The notes beneath the pieces were generated by a model. The model was not told where the DNA came from. It ran no database searches and saw only the letters and a list, made by a program, of their open reading frames with translations. Of a DNA stretch of 64,000 bases, positions 4,768-59,210 are shown one piece after another. This stretch comes from Bdellovibrionales bacterium. Lineage in GTDB: Bacteria > Bdellovibrionota > Bdellovibrionia > Bdellovibrionales > JAUICD01. The number at the start of each line of letters is the position of its first letter. The first letter of the stretch is position 1. Position numbers and translations under genes: made by a program. The stretch covers positions 2,368,001-2,432,000 of the forward strand of contig OZ241865.1 in assembly GCA_965203275.1 (NCBI GenBank). The letters are read 5' to 3'.

Positions 4768-5292
4768 TTTTTCTTAACATTTCACTCAAAATACATCATG
4801 CCTTTGTTTCCCTAAAATTGAACTGGCCTCTGTTTCACTAAAAGTGGTCTGACCTCTGGTCACTTTCTGGCGATGACCACGATGGCTTTCGCCATCGGTA
4901 AAATGGTCATCGCCTAGAAAGCCTGACCACTTTTAGTAAGAAGAATCCTCTTGTCTCTTAACATGATGTTAAGGAAACAAAATGCCTTTAAAATTATATT
5001 AAAAGAGCAATGTCTCAAAAGTCCGTTTACTTTTAGTAGGGAGGATATCTTCCTCTCTTTACACGATGTTAAGGAAAAAGTTCCTTTATTGCATTGAGCT
5101 TGCTCTCCAAAAACATTTTAGAGGCATATCTTGTTTCCCTAACATGGTGTAGAGGAATAAAAGGATCCTTCTCTACTCAAAATAAATAGATTTTCTAGGC
5201 AGTTAGCCTTTGATCGACGGCGGTAGCCGTCGGGCTAACTGCCAGAAAACATGCCAGAGGCATGATTTATTTTGAGTGAAATATTAAGGAAA
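4768..5292. repeat. Cluster 1 of ~145-bp nested palindromic elements
   Basis: Full copies 4831-4979 (-) and 5132-5281 (+), plus stacked partial ends. Confidence 0.9.
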
Positions 5293-5295
5293 TGT

Positions 5296-6498
5296 TTATT
5301 GTAAACATTGAGTTGTTTCTCGAATAAGACCTGCTATTTCTGCATACTGAGCATCTATAGGACTCTGCATATCAGCAATCTTCAAAGCAGAATAACCATA
5401 ATCATTTTGATAACAAGGGTCAGCACCATGAGTTAATAATACTTTAAGTCCTTCTATATCTTTTGCAAGAACTGAGTGCATTATAGGAGTATAACCATAT
5501 TCATCTACAATATGAGGGTCTGCACCTGCTTGAAGTAATAGTGACATAATAATTAAATTATTATTTTGAAAACTTTCTATAAAACACTCCATGCAAAAAC
5601 CAAATGCTTCACGAAGCATGGCTGCGTGAGCCATGGATCGACCATTTTCATTAATACTATATCTTCTTTTGATCACATTAGTTAAAGAAGTTTCAATCTC
5701 TTGCAGTGTCACATAAGTACCCACATTCTCCTCTATATTGAACAAATCGAAAATGAATTGAACTGTACTTGCACGGTTACTCCTAATAGCTGTATACAAA
5801 GCCGTTTGATCATTAGAACTTCTAGTATAAGGATCAGCACCATAAGAGAGTAATAATTCCATAAGTTGAATGCTATTTTTAGCTGATACAAGAAATGGAG
5901 TGAGTCCGCTTTTATTTGGCATATTAGGATCTGCACCAAATGCTAAAAGCATTTTCATTATAGGTATATTATGATTCCCAGAAGCCATAATTAAAGATGT
6001 ACTTCCAAGGATTGAATTTGAAAGATTAGGATCAGCACCTGCCATTAATAATTCTTGGACTACTTCTATATGGCCATTAGTCACCGCAGGTATTAAAGCA
6101 ATGCTACCAGTTCTTTCATTAGGTTTATTAGGATCAACACCAAGAGCTAAGAATAATCTCACTATTTTTATATGACCTCTAAGAGATGCTCTCATTAAAG
6201 GTGATGTATTTTGAGTACCATGCGGATTAGCACCAGCATCTAATAAAACCTTTACTGCTTCTATATCATTTAAGCCAGCTGATACCAGTAGTGGTGTTTC
6301 ATTAAATGCATCTTGAAAATCAGGGTTAGCACCTGCGTTAAGTGCATTTTTAATACCTACAATATCTTTCTTTCTAGCTGCATCTATAAGAGCCTGAGAC
6401 TGAGATGGCATATCATCAGCAAGTAAATGATCTTGATTAGCCCTTACAGCCTGTAAGGTAAGTGTGAAGAAAAATATAAAAATAAAAAATCTCACCAT
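5296..6498 (-). CDS. Secreted ankyrin-repeat protein
   Basis: Signal peptide; repeated TPL...GH.EVV.LL..GADPN units. Confidence 0.9.
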   Translation of the reverse strand: MVRFFIFIFFFTLTLQAVRANQDHLLADDMPSQSQALIDAARKKDIVGIKNALNAGANPDFQDAFNETPLLVSAGLNDIEAVKVLLDAGANPHGTQNTSPLMRASLRGHIKIVRLFLALGVDPNKPNERTGSIALIPAVTNGHIEVVQELLMAGADPNLSNSILGSTSLIMASGNHNIPIMKMLLAFGADPNMPNKSGLTPFLVSAKNSIQLMELLLSYGADPYTRSSNDQTALYTAIRSNRASTVQFIFDLFNIEENVGTYVTLQEIETSLTNVIKRRYSINENGRSMAHAAMLREAFGFCMECFIESFQNNNLIIMSLLLQAGADPHIVDEYGYTPIMHSVLAKDIEGLKVLLTHGADPCYQNDYGYSALKIADMQSPIDAQYAEIAGLIRETTQCLQ

Positions 6499-6608
6499 AA
6501 ATATCCTTACATTAACATTAAGAGTTTATTAAAATTCTTAAGAAAAAGGCAATAATAAAAAATAAGTTTTTGACATGGATATAATTTAAAGTTAAATAAA
6601 GACAGATT

Positions 6609-7484
6609 ATGGCTATTTTCATTTCTATTTTTGTGAGTTTATTTTGTTACTTAAGTTGTTTAAGTCCTCATGGTGCCTTAGCTTGGGGGGTAATGGGACA
6701 TCGTGTCATTGGCCAATTAGCCGAAGAGAAGCTAAATGATAAGGTTCTTGCTCAAGTTCAAAAGCTACTAGGCAAGGACAATATGGCAGATGCTTCCTTA
6801 TGGGCTGATATTGTCAAATCTAACCCTGAAAGAAATTTTCAATTCAAATGGCATTATGCTCGTATAGAGGATGGACAAACATATAAACAAAGCAAACAAA
6901 AAGATATTGTGTGGGCTATTAACCTGATGATTGGTATTCTTAAGAATGAACAATCTCACGAAAAAATCAACAAAACCCAGGCACTTAAGCTATTAATCCA
7001 CTTTGTAGGGGACATACATCAACCCCTTCATGCTTCCCGTGAAATAGATCATGGAGGAAGTAAAATCAAAGTGAAGTTTTTTAGTGACCCTCAGTTGTAT
7101 AATCTTCATCGCATTTGGGATAGTACAATCATTGAATTTTTCAGACTAAGTTATACAGAGCTAACAGATTATGTGCAGAGACACTATACAGAGTCAGTGG
7201 CACAAAAATCACCACAGCATTGGATCAACGAATCAGCTCATTTACGTCCTTACGCATATTTTTTTGATAATATCTATATTGAAACTCCGCCAGTGTTGAT
7301 TTCTCACAAAGACCTTCTTAAAAAATACCCTAATATGCTTAAGTTGCAATTTTCTACAAGCAGAAAACCTCGCGGTGTACCTCACATACATTATCAATAT
7401 GTCAACAGAACCCTTCCTATTATGCTCAAAAGACTTCATGAAGCTGGCATGCGACTAGCCCATCTTCTCAATGAGATTTTATAA
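6609..7484 (+). CDS. S1/P1 nuclease
   Basis: WG..GH, WAD, HFVGDIHQPLH and NLHRIWD motifs. Confidence 0.93.
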   Translation: MAIFISIFVSLFCYLSCLSPHGALAWGVMGHRVIGQLAEEKLNDKVLAQVQKLLGKDNMADASLWADIVKSNPERNFQFKWHYARIEDGQTYKQSKQKDIVWAINLMIGILKNEQSHEKINKTQALKLLIHFVGDIHQPLHASREIDHGGSKIKVKFFSDPQLYNLHRIWDSTIIEFFRLSYTELTDYVQRHYTESVAQKSPQHWINESAHLRPYAYFFDNIYIETPPVLISHKDLLKKYPNMLKLQFSTSRKPRGVPHIHYQYVNRTLPIMLKRLHEAGMRLAHLLNEIL

Positions 7485-7650
7485 CCTTAACCTTAAGTTA
7501 TTGAAGTGACAATTATTTAAATAAGTTATGCCAACCTCTATTTTTATTTATATATCAATACAGGGCTTTACATAATGATCTTGAGTTGCTATATATCATT
7601 ATGATATACTTTAGTCATATTAAATAAATGTATTTAAAATAGGAGTCATA

Positions 7651-7959
7651 ATGAAAGAGCGTGTATTAGAAGTTAAAGGTATTTGTAAAGGTACTATACG
7701 TAGGATTATTTCAGAGTTAAATTGTGGTTTTATTTCTAACAAAAAACATAAAGAAGATATATTTTTTTCTGTTCTCACAGAATTTAAAAACACATCCTAC
7801 AAAGCACTGAATGAAGGTGACCCTGTGGAAGTTTTTGTTGTCAGAACTTCTAGAGGCTTATTTGCAAAGAACCTTCTATTAAAAAGAGCTGATGTTTCTC
7901 GATCTAAAAAACACTGCCCTTCTCACAAACCAAAATTGAATCATCAACCCCATCTTTAA
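7651..7959 (+). CDS. Cold-shock-domain (OB-fold) protein
   Basis: GFI...DIFF...L.EGD.V...RGL.A.N pattern; AGGAG RBS. Confidence 0.75.
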   Translation: MKERVLEVKGICKGTIRRIISELNCGFISNKKHKEDIFFSVLTEFKNTSYKALNEGDPVEVFVVRTSRGLFAKNLLLKRADVSRSKKHCPSHKPKLNHQPHL

Positions 7960-8139
7960 ATATTCATTTTTTGTTTGGGCTTATATCTGTTGTTCATCTT
8001 ATTAGCTCGTTAAACCTTGCTTTAGCTGTTTCTTTTATTTTCATTTGATTAATTATGCAACTTAAGGCCTTGCTTAAGTAAAACCTCGACTTACAGTTGA
8101 TTTAACTTTTCCTAAAGTTGAATATTTAGAAAGAAATCA

Positions 8140-10389
8140 TTATTTTAAGAAGTCATTGACCTTTTTGACATCTTTTTCAGAAAAGAAACATCCTTGCACG
8201 CGATCAATATGACCTCCTTGCCTCATAAAAAGCATATCTCCTTTACCTAAAAGTTTTTCTGCTCCTGTTGTATCAAGGATCGTACGAGAGTCTATAGAAG
8301 ATGCCACCTTAAATGCAATACGTGTAGGAAAGTTCGTCTTAATTAAGCCTGTCACAATATCTGCTGATGGCCTTTGAGTCGCCATAATCAAATGAATACC
8401 ACAAGCTCTTGCTTTCTGAGCAATACGTGTGATAGGAATTTCTACAAGTTTGCCTTGGGTGATCATCAAATCAGCTAACTCATCAATGATAATCACAATG
8501 TAAGGCATTTCTGCCCATTCCCACGAAAAAGTTTTTCCCATACGCCTTTGAATAGCCTTTTGAGATTCTTTTTTAATAGTCTCATTAAAAGAATCTATAT
8601 TACGGCTATGCAGGTCAGAGAACTTTTGATAACGTAGGTCCATTTCTTTCTCTGCCCAACAAAGGGCATTTTTAGCTTCTGTTAAATCTGTGACGACAGG
8701 ATAAATAAGATGAGGAATACCATTATAAGGATTCAGTTCAATCATTTTAGGATCTATCATTAAAAATCTTAAATGTTTGGGGGACCTTGTAAAAAGCAAA
8801 CTATTGATTGCAGCATTGATAAACACACTTTTCCCTGAACCTGTACTTCCAGAGACCAATAAATGAGGCATACTACAAAGATCTTCTACAATCACATGAT
8901 CATAAACATCTAACCCTAATGCAAGAGGCAAAGCAGCATTGGTTTTTTGTACAGCCTTGACCATCTCTCTAAAAGAAACTCCATAAGGATTTTTGTTAGG
9001 TATCTCAATACCAACAGTCATTTTACCAGGGATAGGTGTCAAAATGCGAATAGACTTTGCACCTAACAATAAAGCTAAATCATCACTTAGTTTTGCAATT
9101 TTACTGACCTTCACGCCGGGGTCAGGTTGAAACTCATACATCGTGAGAGTAGCACCTACATGAAACTTTAAAACTTGACCAGATATTTGAAAACTTTTAA
9201 AACATTCTTCAAGTTTTTGAGATTGGTTTTCTTGACTTTTAGGCTTTTTACTGACAGGGCTGAGTAAATTCACATCAGGTGTGCGGTAAGTTTTAGTCCA
9301 CTTTTTAATAGAAATTGTAAATGCTTGAGTTTCTGCTTGAGCAGAATCCTTAGGTTCATCTACAGCTTCTGTCTCGGAAGTATTAGATTGTGGTGATTTT
9401 TTTACTTTCTTAGAACGACGTGCATTTTTACTTTGTTGTTTTTTATTTAATGCTAAAGACTCTCCACTAGCCTCATCTGATTGTTCTTGTATTGTTTCTT
9501 CAATCTCTTGAGATGGCATATCTTGAGATTCTGTATTTTGATACTCTGTATCTTGATACTGTGTACCTTGATACTCTGTGTCTTCTTCCTGAATATCTTG
9601 GTCATTATCATTGAGATCATTTGCTCTTTTAGTATTTTGAAGTGGTGGAAGGAATGGCAATTTGATCTGCAAATCTAAGCCTATATTGCGGTTGAATTCA
9701 TTAGTATAAAACAAAATATATTGAAGTCCTTTTTTGAGAGCCAAAAATAAGTAAAAGAAAAAATTATAAATTTGTTCTCTCGTCCATAAGAGAAGATGCA
9801 CAAGAGCAATATATCCAGAAGATATCCCTACAATTAAAATCATGCAAGTTAAGGAGGTTAAAGCACCATAGATACCAAAATTATTATATAAACTTCCTCC
9901 TATCATTTGACCAATCATTCCTCCAGCACCTTGATCTAACCTGGGTGAAATAGTATATTGAAAGTGATATTGAAAAACTGTTAAGAAGCTAGTGATCAAT
10001 ACTAAAAAGCAAGCATGAAAGAAAATTTGCTTAGCAAAAAACACAGTATTTTGAGTCACATCAGATAAACAGTGGCAACGAGCAATCATAATCTCAGCAA
10101 TATAGAGAACACTTATAGAAATCAAAAATGTAGAAAGACCAAATGTATGGAAAATTTGAAAGAAAATTTTTGTCCCTAATACACCAAAAGAAGACTGAAG
10201 GTCTTCACTAGGAATAAATAAAAATAATAAACCACTACTGATGATAAAAGCAGCTGTGACGATTGCAACTAAAAAGCAAATCTCTTGAAGTGGTGTTTCT
10301 AAATGGGCAATTTTTAACTTCATTTTCCTAGACCTTATTATGACCTTATTATATTTATCACATTCATGTATCGATCGCAGTTGTTTCAA
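8140..10389 (-). CDS. ftsK: DNA translocase FtsK (no C-terminal gamma domain)
   Basis: N-terminal TM segments, PHLLVSGSTGSGKS Walker A, IIIDELADLM, ATQRPS, GAEKLLGKGDMLF; true start may be ATG 10323. Confidence 0.92.
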   Translation of the reverse strand: MKQLRSIHECDKYNKVIIRSRKMKLKIAHLETPLQEICFLVAIVTAAFIISSGLLFLFIPSEDLQSSFGVLGTKIFFQIFHTFGLSTFLISISVLYIAEIMIARCHCLSDVTQNTVFFAKQIFFHACFLVLITSFLTVFQYHFQYTISPRLDQGAGGMIGQMIGGSLYNNFGIYGALTSLTCMILIVGISSGYIALVHLLLWTREQIYNFFFYLFLALKKGLQYILFYTNEFNRNIGLDLQIKLPFLPPLQNTKRANDLNDNDQDIQEEDTEYQGTQYQDTEYQNTESQDMPSQEIEETIQEQSDEASGESLALNKKQQSKNARRSKKVKKSPQSNTSETEAVDEPKDSAQAETQAFTISIKKWTKTYRTPDVNLLSPVSKKPKSQENQSQKLEECFKSFQISGQVLKFHVGATLTMYEFQPDPGVKVSKIAKLSDDLALLLGAKSIRILTPIPGKMTVGIEIPNKNPYGVSFREMVKAVQKTNAALPLALGLDVYDHVIVEDLCSMPHLLVSGSTGSGKSVFINAAINSLLFTRSPKHLRFLMIDPKMIELNPYNGIPHLIYPVVTDLTEAKNALCWAEKEMDLRYQKFSDLHSRNIDSFNETIKKESQKAIQRRMGKTFSWEWAEMPYIVIIIDELADLMITQGKLVEIPITRIAQKARACGIHLIMATQRPSADIVTGLIKTNFPTRIAFKVASSIDSRTILDTTGAEKLLGKGDMLFMRQGGHIDRVQGCFFSEKDVKKVNDFLK

Positions 10390-10705
10390 GTTATATCGGT
10401 TATTATGTATGTAGAACTTTGCCTTAATGCGGAGATGATCGTCTGAAAGTTGAGGATTTGACGAAAATATGTCTCATATTGAGAAAATCTTAAACAAAAG
10501 TCTTAAAGTTAGTCACCTTGAAATGCATTATTCTTCTGGTTATTTTGAGCAGAGAATACCCCTTCAAAAGGACTGTTTTTCTGTTATATCTCAATAAAAC
10601 CTAGCAACAAACTAAAAAAAGCCATTGCTCTTTGAAAGAAATGCATACAAATAGACAAAAGTATGCAAAATTTGGTTAGGTATATTTTAAGCAGAAATAA
10701 AAAAA

Positions 10706-11563
10706 ATGAAACACAAAACCATCAAAACTTATGGAAAAGCTATCATTACAGGGGAACACAGTGTTCTCAGAGGAGGACTTGCAGTGGCATTTCCTCTCTC
10801 CCATCAATATTTAGAAATCACAACTTTTTTGAACACATCGTTAAATATTCCCCTACAAAAATCATCAGGTCGAAATTCAAAACAGCAGGTCATAGATCAA
10901 AAATTGCTTCGAAGAGTTTTAGAACTTTGTGGAAAATCTCTTACTGATTTTCAAGGCAATATTTTAATTAAAAATAATCTTGCAGGAGGCGGATTGGGTA
11001 GTAGTGCTGCTTTATGTGTTGCCTTGGGGCGTCTAATGGTCGATTGTGGTTTTCTACACTCAGGTGATCTTTTTAATTATTGTCATACATTAGAAAAATT
11101 TTTTCATGGAGAAAGCAGTGGATTAGATGTTGCAGTCATTTTAGAACAAACGCCTGTTTTTTATCAAAGAGAGCAAGGAACCACTCCTTTAAAGCTTCAG
11201 TGGCAACCTCATTTTTTCGTGTCCTTTTGTGGTCAAACAAGCCAAACTGATCAAAATATAACAAAAGTTCAAGCTCAAAGCACACTGCACATAGATCAAA
11301 AAATGTCTCATGCATCTTCTTTGGTCATACAAGCATTGCAAACAAACTCCACAGATGGCTTGCCTTTATTGATAGAGGCTATTCAAACAGCCAACCTTTG
11401 CTTTGAAGAGTGGTCCTTAATCACAAAAACTTTAAAGGAACATCTAAAGCACTGTCAAAAAGATGGAGCTATAGCTGTTAAACCAACAGGTTCTGGTGGT
11501 GGAGGGCATGTCTTGAGTTTGTTTAAATATCCACCCACATCTTCTATTTATACAAAAATTTGA
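10706..11563 (+). CDS. mvk: Mevalonate kinase (GHMP family)
   Basis: GKAIITGEHSV, GLGSSAA, HGESSGLD and TGSGGGG motifs. Confidence 0.85.
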   Translation: MKHKTIKTYGKAIITGEHSVLRGGLAVAFPLSHQYLEITTFLNTSLNIPLQKSSGRNSKQQVIDQKLLRRVLELCGKSLTDFQGNILIKNNLAGGGLGSSAALCVALGRLMVDCGFLHSGDLFNYCHTLEKFFHGESSGLDVAVILEQTPVFYQREQGTTPLKLQWQPHFFVSFCGQTSQTDQNITKVQAQSTLHIDQKMSHASSLVIQALQTNSTDGLPLLIEAIQTANLCFEEWSLITKTLKEHLKHCQKDGAIAVKPTGSGGGGHVLSLFKYPPTSSIYTKI

Positions 11564-11640
11564 TTAAACTAAAATCTAAAATATTTATAAAATAGCTTAG
11601 CTTCCAGTTATTTTGAGTTAGAGAGATATTCTGATATTAT

Positions 11641-15822: not shown

Positions 15823-15846
15823 TATAATTAGTTGATTATAGTAAGT

Positions 15847-16803
15847 TTATTTACAGATTTTGTGGACTTCTTCTTCTGATAAGCCAGTGATCTCACAAAC
15901 TTCTTGAATAGTCATGTTTTTTTCAATAAGTTTAAGAGCTACCTCCTGCCGACCTTCCTGCCGACCTTCCTGCCGACCTTTTTGCAGACCTTTTTGCAGA
16001 CCTTCTTGCAGGCCTTCTTGTCTTAATTTAAAAGCGGTACTTGGCATAACTAATCCCTCCTTCTTGGAAATAATCCCACTTTCAATATCACTCAATACTT
16101 TCCTTGAATAATCTGTTACTTGTAACAAATATTCACCTAAAATACCTCCATACTCATTGTACAAAATAGAACCTTTACTACTATTGTAGCAGAGTTCAAG
16201 AACAGACTTAATCGCATCTTTTGTCATATTAGGAGCAAATTTAAAAGCATAACAAAGAGCGGCTATAGCTCCTGCCTCTTCTCTTATATCTTGCTCCGAC
16301 TTTCTATTTAAGTCTACCACATCTAAACCAAAATTCAAGCCCGAAGGCCCAAAAACTCTCTTCATCTCTGATGTCCAGTCAAATGCAGACTGTAAATTAG
16401 TTGCCATATTGAAAGGTGCTTTGCCGTGTAATAGCACAACAGTCATTACAGGATAAATCTTTGCTTCTAAGAGGGCTACATTGTATTTCAAAACTTGAAG
16501 ATAAAACTGTTTTTGAGAACTTATTGAGCTTTTATGTTCTACAATCACTCCCACAAGGGTTTTTGTATTCATCCCCTTTAAACCAATCTGAGCAATCACA
16601 TCCGCACGACATTCTTGAAATATCCCACCTATTTTCTTTTGGATCATCTCTGTTCCAATAAATTCAAACCTATTAAAGTCTAATGCATTAAATTTTTCTG
16701 CACTTAATGCAAATTTTAAAAAACTCTTAAAACGAGCTTTTTGTTTAAGACATAACTTTGCTGTTTTATCAAAATCAATTTGAGAATCACTTACACTTAC
16801 CAT
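15847..16803 (-). CDS. Rpn/YhgA-like recombination-promoting nuclease (PD-(D/E)XK putative transposase)
   Basis: RAD...VEHKS core; C-terminal EGLQEGLQKG..EGRQEG repeats followed by ITGLSEEEV. Confidence 0.85.
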   Translation of the reverse strand: MVSVSDSQIDFDKTAKLCLKQKARFKSFLKFALSAEKFNALDFNRFEFIGTEMIQKKIGGIFQECRADVIAQIGLKGMNTKTLVGVIVEHKSSISSQKQFYLQVLKYNVALLEAKIYPVMTVVLLHGKAPFNMATNLQSAFDWTSEMKRVFGPSGLNFGLDVVDLNRKSEQDIREEAGAIAALCYAFKFAPNMTKDAIKSVLELCYNSSKGSILYNEYGGILGEYLLQVTDYSRKVLSDIESGIISKKEGLVMPSTAFKLRQEGLQEGLQKGLQKGRQEGRQEGRQEVALKLIEKNMTIQEVCEITGLSEEEVHKICK

Positions 16804-16933: not shown

Positions 16934-16996
16934 TAGGAAACGATTCCTTAACATGATATTTATCCGGGATCCGGGATCTGGCAACCCGGCATTAGG
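16934..16996. repeat. Short GGGATC(C/T)-rich repeat joined to a TTCCTTAACAT element end
   Basis: ttccttaacatgatatttatccgggatccgggatctggcaacccgg; related copies near 18073, 18685, 22850, 24627 and 37401. Confidence 0.75.
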
Positions 16997-17138
16997 TCTT
17001 ATAGCACTGTCATTGAGATATAGGAAATATATCTAAGAGAGAGATAATTTTTTAAAAATCATCAATGTTTTCTAATAAGGTATCAACAACTTCACTTGTC
17101 TAATGTGGATTGACAAATAAAGTTGTTGTCTTCAAAGT

Positions 17139-17733: not shown

Positions 17734-18006
<273 letters not shown>

Positions 18007-18127
18007 GAATAAGTCCTTCCTTTTGTTTTTCAACATTGTGTTAAGGGAACAATTCCTTCTAATGCTTGAGTGCCGGATCCCGTCCCGGATAAAGTATATT
18101 TAAATACCCTTTCATTACTATTATCGG

Positions 18128-18313: not shown

Positions 18314-19082
18314 CTCAAAATAAATCATGCCTCTGTTTCCCTAAAATTGAACTAGCCTCTGGCTACTTTTGGGCAGTTAGCCCGACGGCTACCGCCGTCG
18401 ATCAAAGGCTAACCGCCTCAAAAGCTTGTTCAATTTTAGGAAGAAGAATCTCTTCGTCTCTTGACCACATGTTAAGGAAAAAGTTCCTTCTTACACCTTG
18501 GGCAATGACCGCAATGGCTTTCGCCATTGGCAAAATGCTCATTGCCTCAAAAATCTATGCATTTTGAGTAGAGGAGGATCCTTTTATTCCTCTACACCAT
18601 GTTAGGGAAACAAGATATGTCTCTAAAATGTTTTTGGAGAGCAAGCGGATTTACGAATAAGGAACTTTTTCCTTAACATGAAATTTATCCGGGATCTGGG
18701 ATCCGGGATCTGGGAGATGTTTCCTTAACATGATGTTAAAAAACGAGGAGATCCTCTCTACTCAAAATGAGCAGTTTTTTGCGGCATTGCTCTTTTTGGA
18801 CAGCGATAGCTGTCAGAGCAATGCCCAAAAACACACCAGAGGTGTGGCTCATTTTGAGTGAAACAACTAACTTCCTACTCAAAGTGAACAGGCTTTTGAG
18901 ACAATGACCATTTTGTCAAAGGCGAAAGCCTTTGCGGTCATTGTCTAAAAGTGACCAGAGGTCAGTTCACTTTGAGTGAAACAGAGGCTGGTTTATTTTT
19001 AGTGAGACAAACGTGGTCATCGCCAGAAAGTGACCAGAGGTCAGTTCATTTTGAGTGAAACAAACCACATTTAGTGAAAAAG
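18307..19082. repeat. Cluster 2 of nested palindromic elements
   Basis: Copies 18334-18480 (-), 18717-18865 (+) and 18871-18983 (+), plus fragments. Confidence 0.9.
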
Positions 19083-22970: not shown

Positions 22971-23230
22971 TCCCTAACATTTCACTCAAAGTGAACTGGC
23001 CTCTGGCCACTTTTGGACAATGACCATTTTGCCAATGGTGAAAAAAGTGAAATAAACATCTTGTTTCCTTAACATCGTGTAAAGAGACGAGAGGATCCTT
23101 CCTACTAAAAATAAACGGATTTTTGAGGCAATCAGCCTTTGATCGACGGCGAGAGCCGTCGGGCTGATTGCCCAAAAACAGCCAGAGGCTGGTTTATTTT
23201 TAGTGAAATGGACCACTTTTAGTGAAATGG
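22971..23230. repeat. Cluster 3 of palindromic elements
   Basis: Full copy 23062-23208 (+) with GCGAGAGC loop, plus fragments. Confidence 0.9.
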
Positions 23231-23956: not shown

Positions 23957-24819
23957 GTTCACTCAAAATGCATAAATTTTTGAGGCAATCAGCCTTTGAT
24001 CGACGGCGGTAGCCGTCGGGCTAACTGGTATTAGAAAGATATTTTCCTTAACATCATGTTAAAAGAGGAAAGGATCCTTTCTACTCAAAGTGAACAGGCT
24101 TTTGAGACAATGACCATTTTGTCAAAGGCGAAAGCCTTTGCGGTCATTGTCCAAAAGTGACCAGAGGTCAGTTCACTTTGAGTGAAACAGAGGCTGGTTT
24201 ACTTTTAGTGAACCAACTCCTCCAACCTGCCTCCGCCTCCCACTCATAGTATTCTTCATTTTTTTGAGAGTTACGCAGAATCTAAAAGAGAATAAAAAAA
24301 CAACTAGCTTGTTTCCTTAACATGGGGTAAAGAGATGAAGAGATCCTTCTTCCTAAAATTGAACAGGTGTAAAAAGGAACCTTTTCCTTAACATGGTGTC
24401 AAGAAACGAAGAGATCCTCTCTACTAAAAGTAAACGGACTTTTGAGACATTGCTCTTTTTGGACAGCGATAGCTGTCAGAGCAATGTCCAAAAGTAGCCA
24501 GAGGCTAGTTTACTTTTAGTGAAACAAACCACTTTTAGTGAAACAACTCCTTAACATGATGATTTGAGAGTGAAGCATCTTGCTTTTTCCTTTACATGAT
24601 GTTATAAGCTAGAAAGGATTCTCTTTCCAGGATCCGGGATCTGGCAACCCGGGAAGCAGGTGTAAAAAGGAACTTTTTCCTTAACATGGTGTCAAAAAAC
24701 GAAGGGATCCTCCCTACTAAAAGTAAACGGACTTTTGAGACATTGCTCTTTTTAGACAGCGTAAGCTGTCAGAGCAATGTCCAAAAGTAGCCAGAGGCTA
24801 GTTTACTTTTAGTGAAACA
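23957..24819. repeat. Cluster 4 of palindromic elements
   Basis: Copies 24043-24189, 24383-24526 and 24676-24819 (+). Confidence 0.9.
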
Positions 24820-36299: not shown

Positions 36300-37420
36300 T
36301 GTTTCTTTCACTAAAAGTGGTCTAGCCTCTGGCTACTTTTGGGCAATGACCGCAATGGCTTTCGCCATTGGCAAAATGGTCATTGCCTCAAAAGCCTGAC
36401 CACTTTTAGTAGGAAGGATCCTTTCCTCTTTTGACACAATGTTAAGGAAACAGAGTTTCATTTTTTTGTTTTTTTTATTCTCTTTTAGATTCTGCGTAAC
36501 TCTCAAAAAAACATGAATATTATGAGTGGGAGGCGGGGGCGGGCTGAAGGAGTTGTTTCACTAAAAGTAAACTAGCCGTCTTTTGCACTAAAAGTAAACT
36601 GACCTCTGGTCACTTTCTGGCGATGACCACGATGGCTTTCGCCATCGGTAAAATGGTCATCGCCTAGAAAGCCTGACCACTTTTAGTAGGAAGGATCCTT
36701 TCCTTTTTTGACACGATGTTAAGGAAAAAGTTTCATTTGTAGGCCTGGTTGCTCTTGAGGTAATAAAAGAAATTTTCCTTAACATGGTGTTAAGGGAGAT
36801 GGATATTCTGCCTACTCAAAATGAGCGGATTTTTGAGGCATTGCTCTTTTTGGACAGCGATAGCTGTCAGAGCAAACATCCGAAGGAAATCTTTTTCCTT
36901 AACATGCTGTTAAGAAATGAGGACATCCTTCTTCCTAAAATTGAACAAGCTTTTGAGGGAGTTAGCCTTTGATCGACGACGACAGTCGTCGGGCTAACTG
37001 CCCAAAAGTAGCCAGAGGCTAGTTCAATTTTAGGGAAACAGAGGTGTGGCTCATTTTGAGTGAAATGTTAAGGAAAAAGTTCCTTTATTGCATTGAGCTT
37101 GCTCTCCAAAAACATTTTAGAGGCATATCTTGTTTCCCTAACATGGTGTAGAGGAATAAAAGGATCCTTCTCTACTCAAAATAAATAGATTTTCTAGGCA
37201 GTTAGCCTTTGATCGACGGCGGTAGCCGTCGGGCTAACTGCCAGAAAACATGCCAGAGGCATGATTTATTTTGAGTGAAACAAAGAGCAAGCTCAATTGA
37301 GGACTTCGGAAGGCTCACACTGCCCTATCCTCAAGTAAAAACAAAATGAAAAAGCAGAATCAAGGGTGGGGGGTGGGGTTAGGGATCATCCTTCTGATGT
37401 CAGGATGCCGGATCCCAGAT
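36300..37420. repeat. Cluster 5 of palindromic elements
   Basis: Copies 36306-36452 (-), 36585-36727 (-), 36894-37040 (+) and 37132-37282 (+). Confidence 0.9.
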
Positions 37421-51508: not shown

Positions 51509-51607
51509 TCACATAATCCTTTAATTTTAAAGTTTAAGCATGATAGAGCATAAAGGCCGCTTGCTACGTCCCGTATATTCTTATTAAATAGATAGTTATT
51601 GTGTCGC

Positions 51608-52691: not shown

Positions 52692-52912
52692 TATTTGATA
52701 CTCCTTTTAAATTGGTTAAAATTTTTAAGTTAAATAACAATAAAGCACATACAAGGTTAAAGCCTTGATTAAAAAGGCTTTTTCTATGTTTTAGAAGTAA
52801 CCCTTGATAATTTTTGTAAAAATATCTTAATTTAGGGGCGAAGTCAAGCATTTTTAAGAATTAAGAAAAAAGTGAATAGGAACATCCTTAAGTAAGTTTT
52901 TTTAGATATACG

Positions 52913-53396
52913 ATGTTAAAGCTCATCAAGACCTCATTTTCACGATGGTTTGACATACTTTGGTCTACATGATAAGATAAATATAAAAATATAAGTTTAT
53001 GCAGAGGGTTAAAGCTTTTATTGATTTTTTAAAAGAATATATATATGGTGAGTGTATGAAAAAGAAAATAAGGGTTATTTTAGTATTTTTTCTATCTAAT
53101 GAGACATTTATTCTATGGCCTTGTCCTAAAGTCACATTCGATGGCATTAAACAATCAATGATGGATAAGTTAGAGAGAACGCTTATAACTTATTTTTTCC
53201 CTTTAATTGTTCCACTGACTCATCCTACCCTTTAAATCAGGTTAGTTCCGGCTGATTAAATCATCACACTTTCAGAACTTGTAAATGCCACTAAACTTCT
53301 TTATTAAAAAAACCGATAGATATTCTGACAGTCCAGTCCATGCCTAAACCTACAACTTGCCTGATAAATAAGAACATGGATGCATGAAAATAAAAC
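52913..53396 (+). repeat. Conserved ~480-bp 5' cassette, copy 1 (contains uncertain 78-aa ORF)
   Basis: Near-identical to 59226-59707. Confidence 0.92.
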
Positions 53397-53409
53397 CTAG
53401 GAGGATATT

Positions 53410-53727
53410 ATGAGTGATTTTTTTAAAAAAATAAGCTGGCCAAATTTTTTTATGTGGGGTGTTTTTGCTATTATTTCATGTTTGGTAGGGCTTGTATCTT
53501 ACCAATTATATGACAATATACCTAAACAGATTGAAGAGGTTAAGATTGATCTTAAAGAGGTTAAGGATGATCTTAGAGCAGATCTTATTAGAGAGATTGA
53601 TAAGCTAGATAAAGATATTAAAATACTTAACACTGACATTAAAGAGATGGATAAAAAGAATGATCGAAATTTTAAGGACATACTTTTGAGATTGCCACGG
53701 AATGAAATAGCATCTATTGATAAATGA
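53410..53727 (+). CDS. Small TM + coiled-coil protein (YNHIP family, member 2)
   Basis: AGGAGG RBS, TM segment, QLYDNIPKQI. Confidence 0.82.
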   Translation: MSDFFKKISWPNFFMWGVFAIISCLVGLVSYQLYDNIPKQIEEVKIDLKEVKDDLRADLIREIDKLDKDIKILNTDIKEMDKKNDRNFKDILLRLPRNEIASIDK

Positions 53728-53768
53728 TTGACTTATAAGTGGATATGAAAAGCAAAGTTTCCATATTA

Positions 53769-53797
53769 AAAGAGGCCCTTGTGGCCTCTTTTTTTTA
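53769..53797 (+). terminator. Intrinsic terminator
   Basis: AAGAGGCC-CTTGT-GGCCTCTT plus T run; same sequence near 60221. Confidence 0.85.
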
Positions 53798-53821
53798 TTT
53801 GAAATTTTCTTAAGATTTTAT

Positions 53822-53850
53822 TTGACAGGAGTGTATCAAACTGATACACT
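53822..53850 (+). promoter_or_regulatory. Sigma70 promoter overlapped by palindromic operator
   Basis: TTGACA-N17-TACACT; AGTGTATCA-aac-TGATACACT perfect inverted repeat. Confidence 0.7.
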
Positions 53851-53865
53851 GATAGTAAGGGATAT

Positions 53866-53958
53866 ATGAGAATTTATATCTCTATTTTTTTATGCAAAGA
53901 ATGTACATTCGTTGCTAATTATTTGAGTGAGTTTTTTAACAAGTTTAAAAAAGCTTAA
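53866..53958 (+). CDS. Putative 30-aa peptide
   Basis: AAGGGA RBS; MRIYISIFLCKECTFVANYLSEFFNKFKKA between promoter and terminator. Confidence 0.35.
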   Translation: MRIYISIFLCKECTFVANYLSEFFNKFKKA

Positions 53959-53985
53959 ATTAATCGTTAATTTTGAGTTTTTTTA

Positions 53986-54021
53986 GGGATGGGTTTTTGT
54001 GAGAAGCCCATCCTTTTTTTT
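53986..54021 (+). terminator. Intrinsic terminator
   Basis: GGATGGGTTT...AAGCCCATCC plus T run. Confidence 0.8.
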
Positions 54022-54352
54022 CTTTATCGGGTTTTATTAAGTTTTACTTTAATTTGTTAATTAATTAAAGTTAATTATACCAAACAAAAAAATAAAGTCA
54101 AGAATAAAGGCAAAAAAAAAGCTTGCAAAGTGGTTTTTAATAAGCACGGGTTATAGTTAGGGCCTGCCAGGGAGCCTGATCACAACACTAAACCACTATT
54201 TTTGATAAAATCTACTTATATATTTAAGTTCTATAGCCTTTTTTCAGATAAATAGGATGATAAACTTCCTTGTGAATTATAAAAAGACCGGCTTGAAAAG
54301 AGCATAAAGGCCGTTTGCTACGGCCTGTATATTCTTATTAAATAGATAATAG

Positions 54353-55276
54353 TTATTCTGCCGACTCTCTTAAGAGTCTTTTCACATCTTCTGAAAGTAC
54401 TCTCTCATAGTCTAAGATACTAAATCCAAAGTTGTCTTCAAGATCGATGTTAGCTCCGGCCTCTAGCAATGCCCTTACAACCTCAATATGGTCTTCAAAA
54501 CTAGCATACATTAAAGCCGTATAGCCATGCCTCTCTTGAAAATCGACGTCCGCACCGGCCGCTAGCAATGCCCTTACAGACTGCAAAAGTCCCTCACGAC
54601 TAGCATACATTAAAACTGTATAGCCGTTTCTGTCTGGAACATCGATGTTAGTACCCTCGTTAGCTACGGCAGCTCCGGCCACTAGCAATGCCCTTACAAC
54701 ACCAAAACAGCCTGCATTATGAGCCGACCATAAAGCTGTCTTGCCTTTTTGGTCTAGCATCTTGACATTAGCTCCGGCATCTAGCAATACCCTTACAACT
54801 TCAATATGGCATTCACGACTAGCATCAGTTAAAGCCGTATCGCCATTTAAAGCCCTTTCGCCAAAATCCGACCTGCCAATTTTTCTTTGAATATTGACGT
54901 CAGCACCGGCCACTATTAATGCCCTTACAACTTCAATATAGCCTCCAGAGCTAGCATCCATTAAAGCAGTATAGCCATAATAAGCTTGAAGATTGACGTT
55001 AGCTCCGGCTGCTAGCAATGCCCTTACAATCTCTATATGACCATATTGGCTTGCTAACATTAAAGCCGTATAGCCATTACTACTTTGATAATTGACGTTA
55101 GCACCTTTTTCTAGCAAATTCCTTATATCCTCTATATCGCCCCATTTAACAGCTTCTATGAAATCCTTATGGATATTTAGAGGTTCATCTCGATGAAAAT
55201 AAAGTTGTGTTCCTTCAACATTTTGACATACAACCATGGACAAAAATAAAAATATAGATATAAAAATATTTCTCAT
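54353..55276 (-). CDS. Ankyrin-repeat exported protein
   Basis: Signal MRNIFISIFLFLSMVVC, ankyrin repeats, LSEDVKRLLRES end. Confidence 0.93.
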   Translation of the reverse strand: MRNIFISIFLFLSMVVCQNVEGTQLYFHRDEPLNIHKDFIEAVKWGDIEDIRNLLEKGANVNYQSSNGYTALMLASQYGHIEIVRALLAAGANVNLQAYYGYTALMDASSGGYIEVVRALIVAGADVNIQRKIGRSDFGERALNGDTALTDASRECHIEVVRVLLDAGANVKMLDQKGKTALWSAHNAGCFGVVRALLVAGAAVANEGTNIDVPDRNGYTVLMYASREGLLQSVRALLAAGADVDFQERHGYTALMYASFEDHIEVVRALLEAGANIDLEDNFGFSILDYERVLSEDVKRLLRESAE

Positions 55277-55614
55277 TGTTTGTTACTCCTTTTAAATGGG
55301 TTTAAATTTTTTTTAAGTTAAATAACAATAAAGTACATACAAGATTAAAACCTTGATTAAAAGGGCTTTTTCTATGTTTTAGAAGTAACCCTTGATAATT
55401 TTTGTAGTTGTATCTTATTTAGGGCCGAAGTCAAGCATTTTTAAGAATTAAGAAAAAAGTGAATAGGAACATCCTCTAAGTAAGTCTAAAGCCCTGCCGA
55501 TAGAGCTTGACGTATTTTGTCTACATTGACCAATTTTGTCTCCCATCAGAAAATCTATTTTACTTAACTTTAGTATTTATAAGGCTTTTAGTCTTTTAGA
55601 CAAAAAGTTAATTA

Positions 55615-55630
55615 TGGCCTATACTTTGCA
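55615..55630 (+). promoter_or_regulatory. Possible sigma54 promoter
   Basis: TGGCCTATACTTTGCA (GG-N10-GC) upstream of 55688. Confidence 0.45.
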
Positions 55631-55687
55631 GGTATATACTTTAATATTATTTTTTTATTCCATAAAACTAAAAAACAAGGAGTTAAA

Positions 55688-56689
55688 GTGAGTATTAAAT
55701 TTTATAAAACCATATTGTTAGTTATATTTTGTTTATCTTTCATAAGTCCTATAAAATTGCAAGCCTATTGTCAATTTGAAGGATGCGGTGTTTCAAGCAA
55801 TTTAGATGAAGCACCTCTTACACTTCAAGAAGCTCAAGAAATAAAGGAATTCTACACGTCTGTTGAACGTGACTTATCAGACAACCTTGAGGTCTTACAA
55901 GATGGTACTTATCAAGTTAGGTTTTCAGACGACGTCATGGTTGCAATAACTTCTGGAGCTTTTTTCAGAGTAAAAGGAATGTTTGATAATAAAGTGACAA
56001 TTGTGGATGAAACACGGATTGAAGAAATAAGGCAGGACAGGATAAGAGACCGAGAGACTAAAGAGATTGTAAAACATGAATATGAAAGCGGTAATAAGCG
56101 TTTAAAAAAGCTTTTAAAAGAATACCCCCGTGTATCTATAGAAGAGACACCTGATAAAATGACCACTTATATTGATGGACCTAGAGGGAATTATCGCATT
56201 GGCATTTTTCGCAAATTAAAACTTTATCCTCAGGGATATGATGAACGTTACAATAACAGTACTTTACGCTTTTATCGTAAAGTTGGTGGGAAATGGATAA
56301 AAGCAACCCAGGATTTGGTGTCAACAGAAATGCATTTGTACTACCTTTTAAGTAAAGAAGACAAACATATAACTACAGCAATAAACTCATTACAGTCAAG
56401 AAGGGGTTTTAATAGGTATCTAAGAGCAAGGAATATCACGTGGCCCTTGAGTGTAAATAGACTTGTAAGAGCTGGCAGATTTGTAGGTCGATGGACCTTT
56501 CGAGCTGTTTTAGCTGGTGCGAGCATTGTAGGTGGTCAATTGCTTTTTGAACATGCTCAAGAGAATCACCCGGAAGAAACAGAGCTTGTTATAAATATCA
56601 CTAAAGAGCAATGGGAAATTTTGTCCACTAACGTAAGAGGCATCATCGAAGAGCTTTCTGAAAACGTCCTTAGTGAACTTGAATTATAA
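55688..56689 (+). CDS. Secreted protein, family X member 3 with internal insertion
   Basis: Signal peptide shared with 57358; N- and C-terminal parts resemble 17139/21914 proteins. Confidence 0.8.
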   Translation: MSIKFYKTILLVIFCLSFISPIKLQAYCQFEGCGVSSNLDEAPLTLQEAQEIKEFYTSVERDLSDNLEVLQDGTYQVRFSDDVMVAITSGAFFRVKGMFDNKVTIVDETRIEEIRQDRIRDRETKEIVKHEYESGNKRLKKLLKEYPRVSIEETPDKMTTYIDGPRGNYRIGIFRKLKLYPQGYDERYNNSTLRFYRKVGGKWIKATQDLVSTEMHLYYLLSKEDKHITTAINSLQSRRGFNRYLRARNITWPLSVNRLVRAGRFVGRWTFRAVLAGASIVGGQLLFEHAQENHPEETELVINITKEQWEILSTNVRGIIEELSENVLSELEL

Positions 56690-56789
56690 GTCCTTATAAT
56701 CATCCATTTATAGGTTTTATCCTTAAGCAAGTCTAAAGCCCGTCTTTAATTTTTCTAAACCCCTATATTTCCATAGTTTTTATAAGGAA

Positions 56790-57278
56790 ATTTTTCCTTA
56801 ACATTTCACTCAAAATGCATCATGCCATCTTTTGCACTTGAAATGAACCACACCTCTGGTGTGTTTTTTGGTGTTGCCTGCAAAGGCTTTCGCCTTTGAC
56901 AAAATAGGCAACACCTAAAAAATCCATTCATTTCAAGTAAGAAAGGATATCCTTGCCACTTGACATCATGTTAAGGAAAATGTCCCTCTAATGGTAGTTA
57001 GCCCGACGGCTACCGCCGTCGATCAAAGGCTAACCGCCTCAAAAGCTTGTTCAATTTTAGGAAGAAGAATCTCTTCGTCTCTTGACCACATGTTAAGGAA
57101 AAAGTTCCTTCTTACACCTTGGGCAATGACCGCGTTTGTTTCACTAAAAATAAACCAGCCGTTTGTTTCACTAAAAGTGGTCAGGCTTTCTAGGTGATGA
57201 CCATTTTATCGACGGCGAAAGCCGTCGTGGTCATCGCCAGAAAGTGGCCAGAGGTCAGACCACTTTTAGTGAAAAAAG
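56790..57278. repeat. Cluster 6 of palindromic elements
   Basis: Copy 56834-56978 (-) plus partial copies on both strands. Confidence 0.9.
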
Positions 57279-57357
57279 CGGCTTGACTTTAGAAAGGTTA
57301 TGTGGTATATTTGCATTAAGTAAAATTATGTAACCCCTAAACAAAGAAGGAGTCAAA

Positions 57358-58044
57358 ATGAATATTAAGTTTTATCAAACCATGGTTTTAGTTGTATTTT
57401 GTTTATCTTTTCTAAGTCCTATAAAATTGCAAGCCTATTGTCAATTTGAAGGATGCGGTGATTCAAGCAATACGACTTTAATAAGTGCCATCCTTAGTGG
57501 AGATATAGAGGCTGTAAGGTCATCTCTAGCGAATGGAGCTGACGCCAATTATCAAGACAAATATAGTGGTTTTACGGCTTTAATGGGTGCTAGTGAGAAA
57601 GGCCATATAGATATTGTAAGGTTATTGCTAGAAAATGGTGCGGACGTCGATCTTTTAAAAGATTTTTATGGTAATACGGCTTTAATACATGCTAGTCGTG
57701 AAGGCCATATAGAAATTGTAAAGATATTGCTAGCGGCTGGTGCGGACGTCAATCATCAAAACAAAATAGGCAGGACGGCTTTATATTATGCTAGTTCTGA
57801 AGGCCATATAGATATTGTAAGGTTATTGCTAGAAAATGGTGCAGACGTTAATCATCAAGACAGTGGTGTTGGCTACACGGCTTTAATGATTGCTAGTTTT
57901 GAAGGACATATAGAGGTTGTAAGGGCATTGCTAGCGGCCGGAGCTAACGTTGATCCTGAAGACATTGCAGGATTGAGTATCTTAGACTATGAGGATTTTC
58001 TTTCAGAAGATGTGAAAAGACTTTTAAGAGAGTCGACAGAATAA
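57358..58044 (+). CDS. Secreted ankyrin-repeat protein (chimeric)
   Basis: Signal/N-terminus of 55688 type; ankyrin body and end of 54353 type. Confidence 0.93.
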   Translation: MNIKFYQTMVLVVFCLSFLSPIKLQAYCQFEGCGDSSNTTLISAILSGDIEAVRSSLANGADANYQDKYSGFTALMGASEKGHIDIVRLLLENGADVDLLKDFYGNTALIHASREGHIEIVKILLAAGADVNHQNKIGRTALYYASSEGHIDIVRLLLENGADVNHQDSGVGYTALMIASFEGHIEVVRALLAAGANVDPEDIAGLSILDYEDFLSEDVKRLLRESTE

Positions 58045-58066
58045 CTATCTATTTAATAAGAATATA

Positions 58067-58090
58067 AAGGCCGTAGCAAACGGCCTTTAT
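58067..58090 (+). terminator. Hairpin shared downstream of ankyrin genes
   Basis: AAAGGCCGT-AGCAA-ACGGCCTTT; related copies near 19100, 51552 and 54306. Confidence 0.7.
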
Positions 58091-58130
58091 GCTCATCATG
58101 CTTAAACTTTAAAATTAAAGGATTATGTGA

Positions 58131-58345
58131 TTAATCAACACCATTGGCCTCGTTTGCTAATACCTTGGCATCACTCATGGTCCATTCGTCATAACGACTG
58201 CCACCAATATAATACCTATTGCACCGATTGTAAATGTCACCGATGTTAAATTGCTATTATTGACTCCACCAAGGTTTGGTGTACACGTATTAGTTGTTGG
58301 TGCAGTATTGCTACAACTGTTTGCACCAATTTTCAAACCTAATTT
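58131..58345 (-). pseudogene. Type IV pilin-like C-terminal fragment, frameshifted
   Basis: ..NSCSNTAPTTNTCTPN..TFTIGAIG / YIGGSRYDEWTMSDAKVLANEANGVD*; no N-terminal prepilin helix. Confidence 0.55.
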
Positions 58346-58380
58346 CCTTATTTTTTAAAAAAATGCAGAGAAATGAAAGC

Positions 58381-59210
58381 CTTGTTTCCTTAACATTTCA
58401 CTCAAAATGAACTGGCCTCTGGCTACTTTTGAGCTGGATCTTCAATTTATTTCTTAAATTTCAAAATCATTTCCCTGAGACCAGACTCTTTCCCATTCAT
58501 ATCATTAGCTTTTACAACCTTTCATCTTATTTGGCTTTGAAATTCTGTGCTTACAAATAAAAAATCTGGATGCGAATGGTAATGGGCAATCAGCCCGACG
58601 GCTCACGCCGTCGTAAAAAGCTGGCTACCTCAAAAGCTTGTTCATTTTGAGTAGAGGAGGATCTCCTCATTCTCTACACCATGTTAGGGAAACAAGGTAT
58701 GCTTCTAAAATGTTTTTAGGGAGCAAACGGATTGCAAATAAAACACTTTTTCCTTAACATGGTGTTAAAAAACGAAGGGATCCTCCCTACTAAAAGTGGT
58801 CAAGCTTTCTAGGCAATGACCATTTTATCGACGGCGAGAGCCTTTGCAGGCAACACTCAAGGTGTAAGAAGGAACTTTTTCCTTAACATGTAGTTATGAG
58901 ACGAGGAGATCCTCCCTTACTAAAAGTAAACGGACTTTTGAGGTAGCCAGCCTTGATGAAGGAACTTTTTCCTTAACATTGTGTTAAAAAAGGAAAGGAT
59001 CTTTCCTACTAAAAATAAACGGATTTTTGAGGTATTGCTCTTTTTGGACAGCGTAAGCTGTCAGAGCAATGCCCAAAAACAGCCAGAGGCTGGTTTATTT
59101 TTAGTGAAAAAGATAAGAAGGCGAATAGCCTTCGGCTGGCTACCCAAAAGTGACCAGAGGTCAGTTTACTTTTAGTGAAACAGAGGTCAGTTCAATTTTA
59201 GGGAAAACAA
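58381..59210. repeat. Cluster 7 of palindromic elements
   Basis: Full copy 58968-59108 (+); interrupted copy 58395-58693 (-); fragments. Confidence 0.9.

Follow-up and report, generated by a model that had tools for sequence, protein, structure and literature searches.

The window, a stretch of 64,000 nucleotides (nt) from the genome of a Bdellovibrionales bacterium (GCA_965203275.1, contig OZ241865.1, positions 2,368,001 to 2,432,000 of the forward strand), contains many copies of a repeat of ~145 bases, here designated element A. The source genome (G000) is closed, with 2.57 Mb and 35% GC. Element A is probably a new REP/BIME-like family, of a familiar general kind, with an unusual fold and imprecise, self-targeting junctions, and is probably selfish. 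As to its spread, we place about even confidence in a reading in which it is selfish, non-autonomous DNA, its folded strand being copied and then pasted in through microhomologies, possibly at nicks made by Rpn nucleases.

Read from 5' to 3', element A opens with TTTC. Next come a palindromic head, (C/T)TAACA-TNN-TGTHAA, two tracts, the first of purines and the second of pyrimidines, and then a three-way junction. The outer stem of this junction has 13 bp; of its two arms, the long one carries a single bulged A, a T-rich bulge, and a GNNA loop, and the short one carries an AGA loop. The 3' end is a fixed TTTTAGTG or a variant of it, followed by an A-rich tail. GAAAC, with which a preliminary description of this DNA had closed the layout, is the commonest tail and just one of many found behind the fixed end.

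The conserved branched fold with covarying stems that had been proposed for these copies was confirmed. Folding z-scores were -6.7 to -9.3 in all ten folds (five copies, both strands). In an alignment of 37 copies from three species, 95.1% of the cells were paired, compared with 78.7% for shuffled and 34 to 50% for slid control pairings, and compensatory changes on both sides were seen in 31 of the 42 pairs. Because the copies are related, the shuffle result is not a probability, but the margin is still large. The outer stem was perfectly complementary in 565 of the 696 full cores recognized in G000 by a strict parser, which was applied to both the window and the genome; perfect outer stems made up 80% of the 578 distinct parsed cores, against 14% expected from the allele frequencies. 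The two 5' hairpins that had been included in the fold did not hold up. Columns 1 to 44 were unpaired (RNAalifold), the head palindrome TTAACA-N3-TGTHAA showed no covariation and had one pair broken in 22 of the 37 copies, and the GGATCC arms of the same copy paired no better than those of different copies (-2.86 versus -3.02 kcal/mol; n = 582). The 5' part is therefore better read as a motif plus a linker. With that exception, the earlier picture of a structure-conserved, non-autonomous, mobile, recombining, and modular element stands.

Across three species the stems turn over, yet the unit length, the geometry of the junction, the AGA loop, and both bulges (the single-base one and the T-rich one) are retained, and the kept bulges and AGA loop argue for selection on shape. 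Near-pure Watson-Crick stems can be maintained by arm-to-arm template switching (PMC8794818), so that covariation alone is no proof of recognition; it is the kept bulges that argue for it.

The stems behave as modules. As the preliminary description had suggested, stem types occur in different combinations: 400 perfect-stem cores combined 11 alleles of the outer stem, 16 of the inner stem, and 7 of the short arm in 63 different ways. Normalized mutual information between partner arms was 0.74 for the outer stem (~100 nt apart), 0.83 for the middle stem, 0.85 for the inner stem, and 0.90 for the halves of the short, triloop-bearing arm. Most non-partner segments gave values of 0.41 to 0.64, one adjacent non-partner pair gave 0.74, and the outer 3' arm and the triloop arm next to it gave 0.63. 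Linkage thus tracks pairing and not distance, suggesting that whole helices are exchanged or that mismatched recombinants are removed or repaired.

Stem statistics were obtained for 519 of the 602 distinct cores (cores with more than two mismatches in a stem and unparsable cores were dropped). Watson-Crick pairs filled 17,543 of 17,771 stem cells (98.7%). Both strands folded alike (-59.6 versus -59.4 kcal/mol as RNA; n = 120), the apical loops included 332 GNRA and 199 GNYA loops among 588 read, and orientation with respect to flanking codirectional genes was indifferent (221 same, 207 opposite). Taken together, these features lead us to infer that element A is a DNA element rather than an RNA gene. 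On the given strand, G-T mismatches exceeded A-C mismatches (126 versus 41 cells; 43 versus 19 distinct variants), a sign that this strand folds.

All 14 near-complete copies noted previously in the window were recovered at their positions, and the strict parser found exactly 14 full cores there; nhmmer added ~15 partial copies. A profile built from the window copies had 1,602 nhmmer matches genome-wide, evenly spread over both strands (823 and 779), of which 807 spanned more than 130 model positions. The family makes up 6.3% of the G000 DNA. In short-read contigs (four runs from at most three samples and two studies, one possibly the source sample), element bins were >100 times deeper than unique DNA, indicating that the repeat is not an assembly artifact. 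Element A is almost wholly intergenic, with only 5 of the 696 cores lying within open reading frames (ORFs) of at least 200 amino acids. It has a high copy number and mosaic clusters, as REP/REPIN families do. Tandem arrays (period, 147 bp) are common, as are larger duplicated units. GC skew and gene strand revealed no two-replichore pattern across the closed chromosome, as expected given frequent rearrangement between repeats.

Element A is lineage restricted, having been found only in two sister genomes and on misbinned contigs of a third species. A covariance-model search (20 candidates scored per genome) detected it in 3 of 151 genomes sampled from the order and in 1 of 151 sampled from the phylum, the two samples overlapping. 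The carriers were G000, its sister genome G001, which belongs to the same genus and holds 150 copies or more, and G004. The 15 profile matches in G004 all lie on three small contigs, C1, C4, and C11 (L068, L071, L078, L082, and L122), which hold second ribosomal-protein, recG, and dcd genes that are closer to those of G000 than to those on the large G004 contigs. These contigs are therefore misbinned DNA of a third carrier species. Scans with strict exact patterns gave four stretches in one Bdellovibrionales record among 185,579 species, from which the source genome itself may be left out, and none in viral contigs or JGI metagenomes. No published description of element A was found in the literature searched, supplements being outside its scope, and no such repeat appears in the available part of a paper on sponge Bdellovibrionota genomes (PMC9944714).

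At its 3' end, element A most often abuts part of another copy, one that is 5' truncated; in front of its 5' end comes a leader, which is joined to a copy truncated on the 3' side. Leaders of 12 to 20 nt and tails of 3 to 8 nt are carried along with the element. The same end positions are found again and again, in 336 distinct contexts on the right and 432 on the left. Copies are frequently truncated or nested, and they disrupt genes and other repeats. There was no excess of target duplications in the flanks, with a longest common stretch of 4.86 versus 4.71 in shuffled controls (G000; n = 643) and of 4.45 versus 4.46 in the relatives (n = 33). Comparison of filled and empty paralogous sites gave 54 rows, not all independent, of which 19 tandem rows were set aside. 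In 27 of the remaining 35 rows, 2 to 43 target bases (median, 16) were replaced, and in 8 there were overlaps, two of them element G artifacts (see below). The replaced target lies mostly within older copies of element A. Contigs from other samples break at the repeats, and no bridged empty site was seen among the rows listed for them. AA was enriched 1.7-fold at the junction ends on both sides. CA opened 36 of the 336 distinct right junctions (1.7-fold), an excess that mostly overlaps the element's own AAACA tail, and 40 of the 432 left junctions (1.3-fold; p 0.06), while CT was 1.4-fold enriched at right junctions (p 0.05). Neither a fixed core nor a fixed duplication was seen at the element A junctions. 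A circular intermediate was considered and rejected, since what looked like a circularly permuted monomer can be traced to tandem units split by element G, and the 122 head-to-tail joints can arise by landing before an older head.

A second element, designated element G, is nested in element A. G000 contains 23 full-length copies at 15 sites, and its position within element A is identical at all 15, where it has a CA core and no target is lost. It is flanked by several different element A alleles, and nine head-to-tail units occur at one site (G000:C1:467085-468461). A single insertion followed by allele shuffling could explain this placement. In G001 there are 26 matches; those read have precise ends and lie in other contexts, mostly heptamer runs, and the right ends were followed by CAA in 7 of 7 read. 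Element G was not found in G002, G003, or G004. Like ISPpu9, an IS110 element that inserts into REP (PMC12288879), element G uses a precise single position in a palindromic repeat and a two-base core and has head-to-tail forms. Unlike such elements, it contains no ORF and sits mostly in heptamer runs in G001, and no IS110 transposase domain (PF02371) was matched in G000 or G001 (positive control, defined for this and the other domain searches as matches of the same profile among 14 genomes, 6/14). That such a precise element occurs in G000, where neither an IS110 nor a Y1 enzyme was matched, strengthens the case for an unrecognized enzyme that is active now or was recently.

Another structured repeat, family B (~65 to 75 copies, e.g., G000:C1:1391902-1392137), starts with CCCTAACC, like the head of element A, has an A-rich tract at its other end, and often serves as a landing site.

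In the mechanism that we propose, element A would pass through a single-stranded DNA intermediate that is copied as a folded strand. The copy would be pasted in where DNA is nicked or broken, short A-rich microhomologies serving for the joint and either template switching or microhomology joining as the route, and the nicks might come from the Rpn nucleases, a family that is expanded here. The TTAACA-N3-TGTHAA head, the loop of AGA, and the bulges that are kept would be putative protein-recognition sites, and tandem amplification and whole-helix exchange between copies would come later. The Rpn step, taken by itself, is the weakest part of this explanation, and we regard it as doubtful.

The Rpn family next to element A (PF04754 and TIGR01784, with stand-alone C-terminal RpnS-like pieces) was brought forward by its location. 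In G000, 31 of the 33 Rpn genes, in 8 of 9 sequence clusters, have element A within 300 bp. The same holds for 256 of 956 and 175 of 681 single-copy genes (26 to 27%) and, among multicopy genes, for 29 of 66 ankyrin genes and 60 of 124 others (44 to 48%). Rpn is rare among the order genomes (matches in 9 of 151), but both carrier genomes and one carrier contig have it. Products of RpnA cleavage can serve as primers for a polymerase and can be joined through template switching (PMC5350276). Among resident proteins, Rpn is thus the strongest candidate for making the nick, although it may be cargo. We consider it a long shot that Rpn nucleases, alone or with an Avd-like protein, recognize the single-stranded three-way junction and drive nick-primed, template-switching copy-paste without HUH, DDE, IS110, or reverse transcriptase enzymes, so that the element amplifies the Rpn defense genes that it flanks and hosts element G as a hyperparasite. 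Among the genomes searched, both the Rpn family and a four-helix-bundle family (see below) are expanded only in G000 and G001, which are also the sole clean carriers.

Several observations weigh against the proposed mechanism. No movement of element A was observed. The empty sites are paralogues and do not come from other strains, one amplified event accounts for many of the rows, and gaps are enlarged by divergence between paralogues. One row shows a clean insertion, and those at Rpn genes are readable as an 11-nt duplication. Only 5 of 15 Rpn loci in G001 have element A within 700 bp, G003 has 20 Rpn matches with element A at 0 of 14 examined loci, and six further Rpn-bearing genomes lack the element. 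All nine intact four-helix-bundle genes of G000 adjoin element A as well. The G-T excess fits a single-stranded form of the given strand as DNA or as RNA. Escherichia coli RpnA is a nonspecific nuclease (PMC5350276), and Rpn proteins have been argued to be anti-phage toxin-antitoxin pairs and not transposases (PMC10400941), suggesting that these genes may be cargo, or places at which landing is tolerated. Apart from this, copies of element A lie inside Rpn genes, just upstream of the internal start of a small C-terminal protein (G000:C1:2025610-2025756, 893172-893318, and 1707812-1707961), separating that protein from the nuclease domain, and several stand-alone C-terminal pieces are element flanked.

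Among the alternatives, we consider it unlikely that element A is a REPIN/BIME-type family whose folded strand is cut at variable distances by an HUH enzyme (RAYT or IS200-type Y1) that has been lost, is too divergent, or acts in trans. TnpA-REP cuts single-stranded REP at CT or CA located 5' or 3' of the hairpin and needs the bulge (PMC8266576), and the REP/BIME-like density and mosaic clustering, the leaders and tails carried along, the CA excess at right junctions, and the precise CA core of element G would all agree with such an enzyme. However, Y1_Tnp (PF01797) had no match in G000 (control, 6/14), leaving the HUH/RAYT partner suggested at the outset without a candidate there, and the only match in G001 is bounded by short hairpins of its own, with no element A in its 3.4-kb locus. 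Neither strand has GTAG 5' of the stem, and left junctions lack the CA enrichment, which on the right is mostly tail overlap. Recent activity is also implied by near-identical copies.

The Y2 transposase profile (PF04986) also had no match, but its control was positive in 0 of 14 genomes, and the best score for an integron integrase (TIGR02249) was 33 bits versus a cutoff of 265, which no control genome passed either. GIY-YIG was rejected as a mover, its one match per genome lying in a frame of 612 to 653 amino acids taken for UvrC. G000 has two tyrosine recombinases, one Xer sized and one short. A partner of this type had also been proposed, but none is specific to the carriers: the short one is order-wide and was rejected. 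It has 187 amino acids, comprises the catalytic domain only (L019:1417-1980; G000:C1:2047789-2048352), and is single copy in 32 of the 41 Bdellovibrionales genomes searched; PF00589 had no match whatever in G003 or G004. Thirty hand-picked proteins, most of them from 429 candidates without a homologue in the G004 main contigs, included no HUH, reverse transcriptase, or integrase partner when compared with Pfam, the others being inspected by their first residues only.

It is quite improbable that no dedicated enzyme is involved and that the fold is unread, slippage, break repair, and recombination having spread the copies while template switching between arms keeps the stems perfect. The near-pure Watson-Crick stems and multibase compensated alleles do fit template switching (PMC8794818), insertion sequence (IS) copies can patch breaks without duplication (10.1101/2024.06.02.596822), tandem arrays and larger duplicated units are common, and no candidate transposase was found. 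Arm-to-arm copying, however, should erase the bulges, which are kept in three species together with the junction geometry, the AGA loop, and the unit length, and both ends recur at the same positions in the hundreds of contexts given above.

We hold a SINE-like retroposon (SINE, short interspersed nuclear element) to be very unlikely. Here, an A-tailed structured RNA would be reverse transcribed at nicks, with template jumps and an Avd-like four-helix-bundle cofactor. The fixed 3' end followed by A-rich tails, the 5'-truncated co-oriented pieces, and the one-strand G-T excess are what such a process would leave, and intact genes of the four-helix-bundle family (PF05635/TIGR02436), which we take to be akin to Avd, have element A within 300 bp in 9 of 9 cases in G000, with fragments fused to its 3' end. 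Against this, RVT_1 had no match in G000 (three in G001; control, 3/14), and promoters were not in excess (2 found versus 5.3 expected). The four-helix-bundle family occurs in 47 of the 151 order genomes, many of its genes lie on the large G004 contigs, which lack element A, and its orientation to element A is mostly the same in G000 but opposite in G001. The genes keep their own heptamer arms where element A is absent. A four-helix-bundle gene was therefore rejected as a dedicated partner, the apparent co-occurrence in G000, G001, and G004 being broken by the misbinned contigs and this wide spread. Adenine mutagenesis of the diversity-generating-retroelement type was likewise rejected, adenine being the least-changed base (5.9 per 1,000 versus 10 to 14).

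A four-helix-bundle gene of 101 amino acids lies between heptamer runs at G000:C1:819120-819425 (L196:621-926), with eight further intact copies elsewhere. Several of these cassettes begin with the same head motif as element A, and 113 of 1,407 heads genome-wide have heptamers instead of the fold behind them. In the G004 main contigs (L021 and L024), where element A is absent, a different dispersed repeat starting with TCAAGGTCTTCC adjoins four-helix-bundle genes.

We find it highly unlikely that element A is a cis-acting RNA structure (a terminator, stabilizer, or processing signal) or a small RNA gene amplified by the host. The very stable covarying fold, the intergenic placement, and the nine terminator-like matches (1.3 expected) would suit such a role. 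The lack of strand preference relative to genes, the frequent truncation and nesting, the disruption of genes and repeats, the few G-U pairs, and the many non-GNRA loops would not, and no Rfam family matched at the gathering score. Hardly credible, and largely refuted, is a MITE (miniature inverted-repeat transposable element) moved by a resident DDE transposase through the imperfect terminal inverted repeat TTTC(C/A)(T/C)TAA: the ends of element A do form an imperfect inverted repeat of ~10 nt, and G000 has multicopy IS256- and IS1634-like elements with several near-identical copies (families assigned by sequence recognition), but the ends of these two types, the resident IS examined, differ from those of element A, so that the DDE partner once proposed was not found among them, and the IS256-like copies have clean 8-bp duplications at 8 of 8 sites shown, whereas element A duplicates none. 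Two of these eight (G000:C1:626507-627742 and 432252-433487) sit in element A or its tail, each with its 8-bp duplication.

The features of the window are collected in Table 1; the head of its full copies is read there as TTTCC(C/T)TAACA-N3-TGTHAA. The Rpn gene has a head plus heptamers ~140 bp upstream, with no full element there. An intergenic (GA)n microsatellite of ~35 bases is located at 17923-17979, with a degenerate reverse head motif nearby (18035-18050). Elsewhere in G000, multicopy coiled-coil proteins have a DUF8196/DUF3782-like C-terminal part (L184:270-7134; G000:C1:2031769-2038633; Atlas score high, taken as a lead only), and some of their genes start directly behind the 3' end of element A. 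Four CRISPR-cas-like clusters, judged by protein starts, sizes, and adjacent arrays, were noted at G000:C1:238802-244554, 370504-376815, 1990534-1994921, and 2268955-2278444, with one element A copy at 242899, beside the first.

Table 1. Copies of element A and associated features in the window (positions are those of the window)
Feature	Position	Strand	Basis
Full copy of element A	4832..4978	-	Strict parser, alignment
3'-truncated copy, model positions 2-84	5001..5083	-	nhmmer
Full copy of element A	5133..5282	+	Strict parser, alignment
Rpn / YhgA-like PD-(D/E)XK nuclease gene, candidate partner family	15847..16803	-	
Orphan head joined to heptamer run (CCGGGAT/CTGGCAA type)	16940..16997	+	
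Full copy of element A	18335..18481	-	Strict parser, alignment
3'-truncated copy, interrupted by leader of next copy	18498..18614	-	nhmmer
Full copy of element A behind orphan head and heptamer run	18719..18864	+	Strict parser
5'-truncated copies, joined via A-rich tails to 3' end of preceding copy	18871..19076	+	
Full copy of element A	23063..23209	+	Strict parser, fold
Full copy of element A	24042..24188	+	Strict parser, fold
Full copy of element A	24382..24525	+	Strict parser
Full copy of element A	24675..24818	+	Strict parser
Full copy of element A	36305..36451	-	Strict parser
Full copy, chimeric outer stem (5' and 3' arms are two alleles)	36582..36728	-	Alignment
Full copy of element A	36893..37039	+	Strict parser
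Full copy of element A	37132..37281	+	Strict parser
Full copy, rare outer-stem allele	56831..56980	-	Strict parser, fold
Two truncated copies, opposite orientations	56992..57281	.	nhmmer
Element A copy split at position 107/108 by element G	58394..58695	-	
Element G, 152-153 bp, precise ends, CA core, at base of long stem of element A	58432..58584	-	
Two 3'-truncated copies, each cut by leader of next copy	58745..58954	+	
Full copy inside T-rich bulge of older copy (older 3' part at 59117-59184)	58967..59110	+	

Among known systems, element A most resembles the REP/BIME/REPIN families, with hundreds of intergenic palindromic copies, mosaic clusters in two orientations, restriction to a small lineage, kept bulges, variable flanking linkers, and the absence of target duplication (PMC8266576, PMC3116915). 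A REP is a hairpin of 20 to 50 nt, whereas element A is ~145 nt long, with a three-way junction and a fold of ~110 nt. REP has a conserved tetranucleotide, usually GTAG, 5' of its stem, while the 5' foot of element A reads CTAC/CTCC on the given strand and CAC/CCC on the other, and REP/REPIN families have a RAYT (Y1 HUH) gene flanked by the repeat, for which G000 has no match. Also unlike REP/BIME, element A has about ten freely exchanged alleles per helix and replaces target bases at insertion.

In integron attC sites, the stems vary while pairing and unpaired bases are kept, the motif is RYYYAAC...GTTRRRY, with a precise crossover at G/TT, and single-ORF cassettes lie between the sites. Element A similarly has variable stems with kept pairing and unpaired bases, and its head reads like RYYYAAC...GTTRRRY. 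However, the halves of this RYYYAAC/GTT palindrome are only 5 nt apart and it leaves the long stem unclosed, no integron integrase scored above the cutoff in G000, there is no cassette array, and the copies are clustered and nested with imprecise junctions.

Bacterial MITEs such as Correia/NEMIS, ERIC, RUP, and the Rickettsia palindromic element (RPE) share with element A a length below 200 bp, a non-coding nature, long stable stems, and abundance in one lineage, and its imperfect inverted repeat of ~10 nt may correspond to their terminal ones (PMC2229807). Unlike the MITEs described there, element A has no TA termini, no target duplication, and no examined resident IS with the same ends, its 5' 40 nt are outside the fold, and, unlike RPE, it is almost never found inside long ORFs. 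As for the Rpn / YhgA-like systems (PMC5350276, PMC10400941), the same gene family is expanded here, and template switching predicts imprecise microhomology junctions; in the available parts of both papers the Rpn genes are linked to no structured repeat, and PMC10400941 finds, in that part, no evidence of transposition.

What sets this case apart is that one closed genome without the usual single-strand transposases holds ~700 recent copies, with distinct junctions that number in the hundreds, together with a precise element nested in the repeat. To our knowledge, most abundant bacterial palindromic repeats, except the RAYT-linked REPs, have no known mover. Here, a short list of candidates results, the Rpn nucleases and the four-helix-bundle proteins, and the repeat is a ready substrate for a binding or cleavage test. 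The case bears on whether Rpn proteins ever mobilize DNA and on whether a repeat that covaries strongly has to be a functional RNA. Even as only a lineage-specific selfish repeat, element A would present an unusually clear example of whole-helix exchange between copies.

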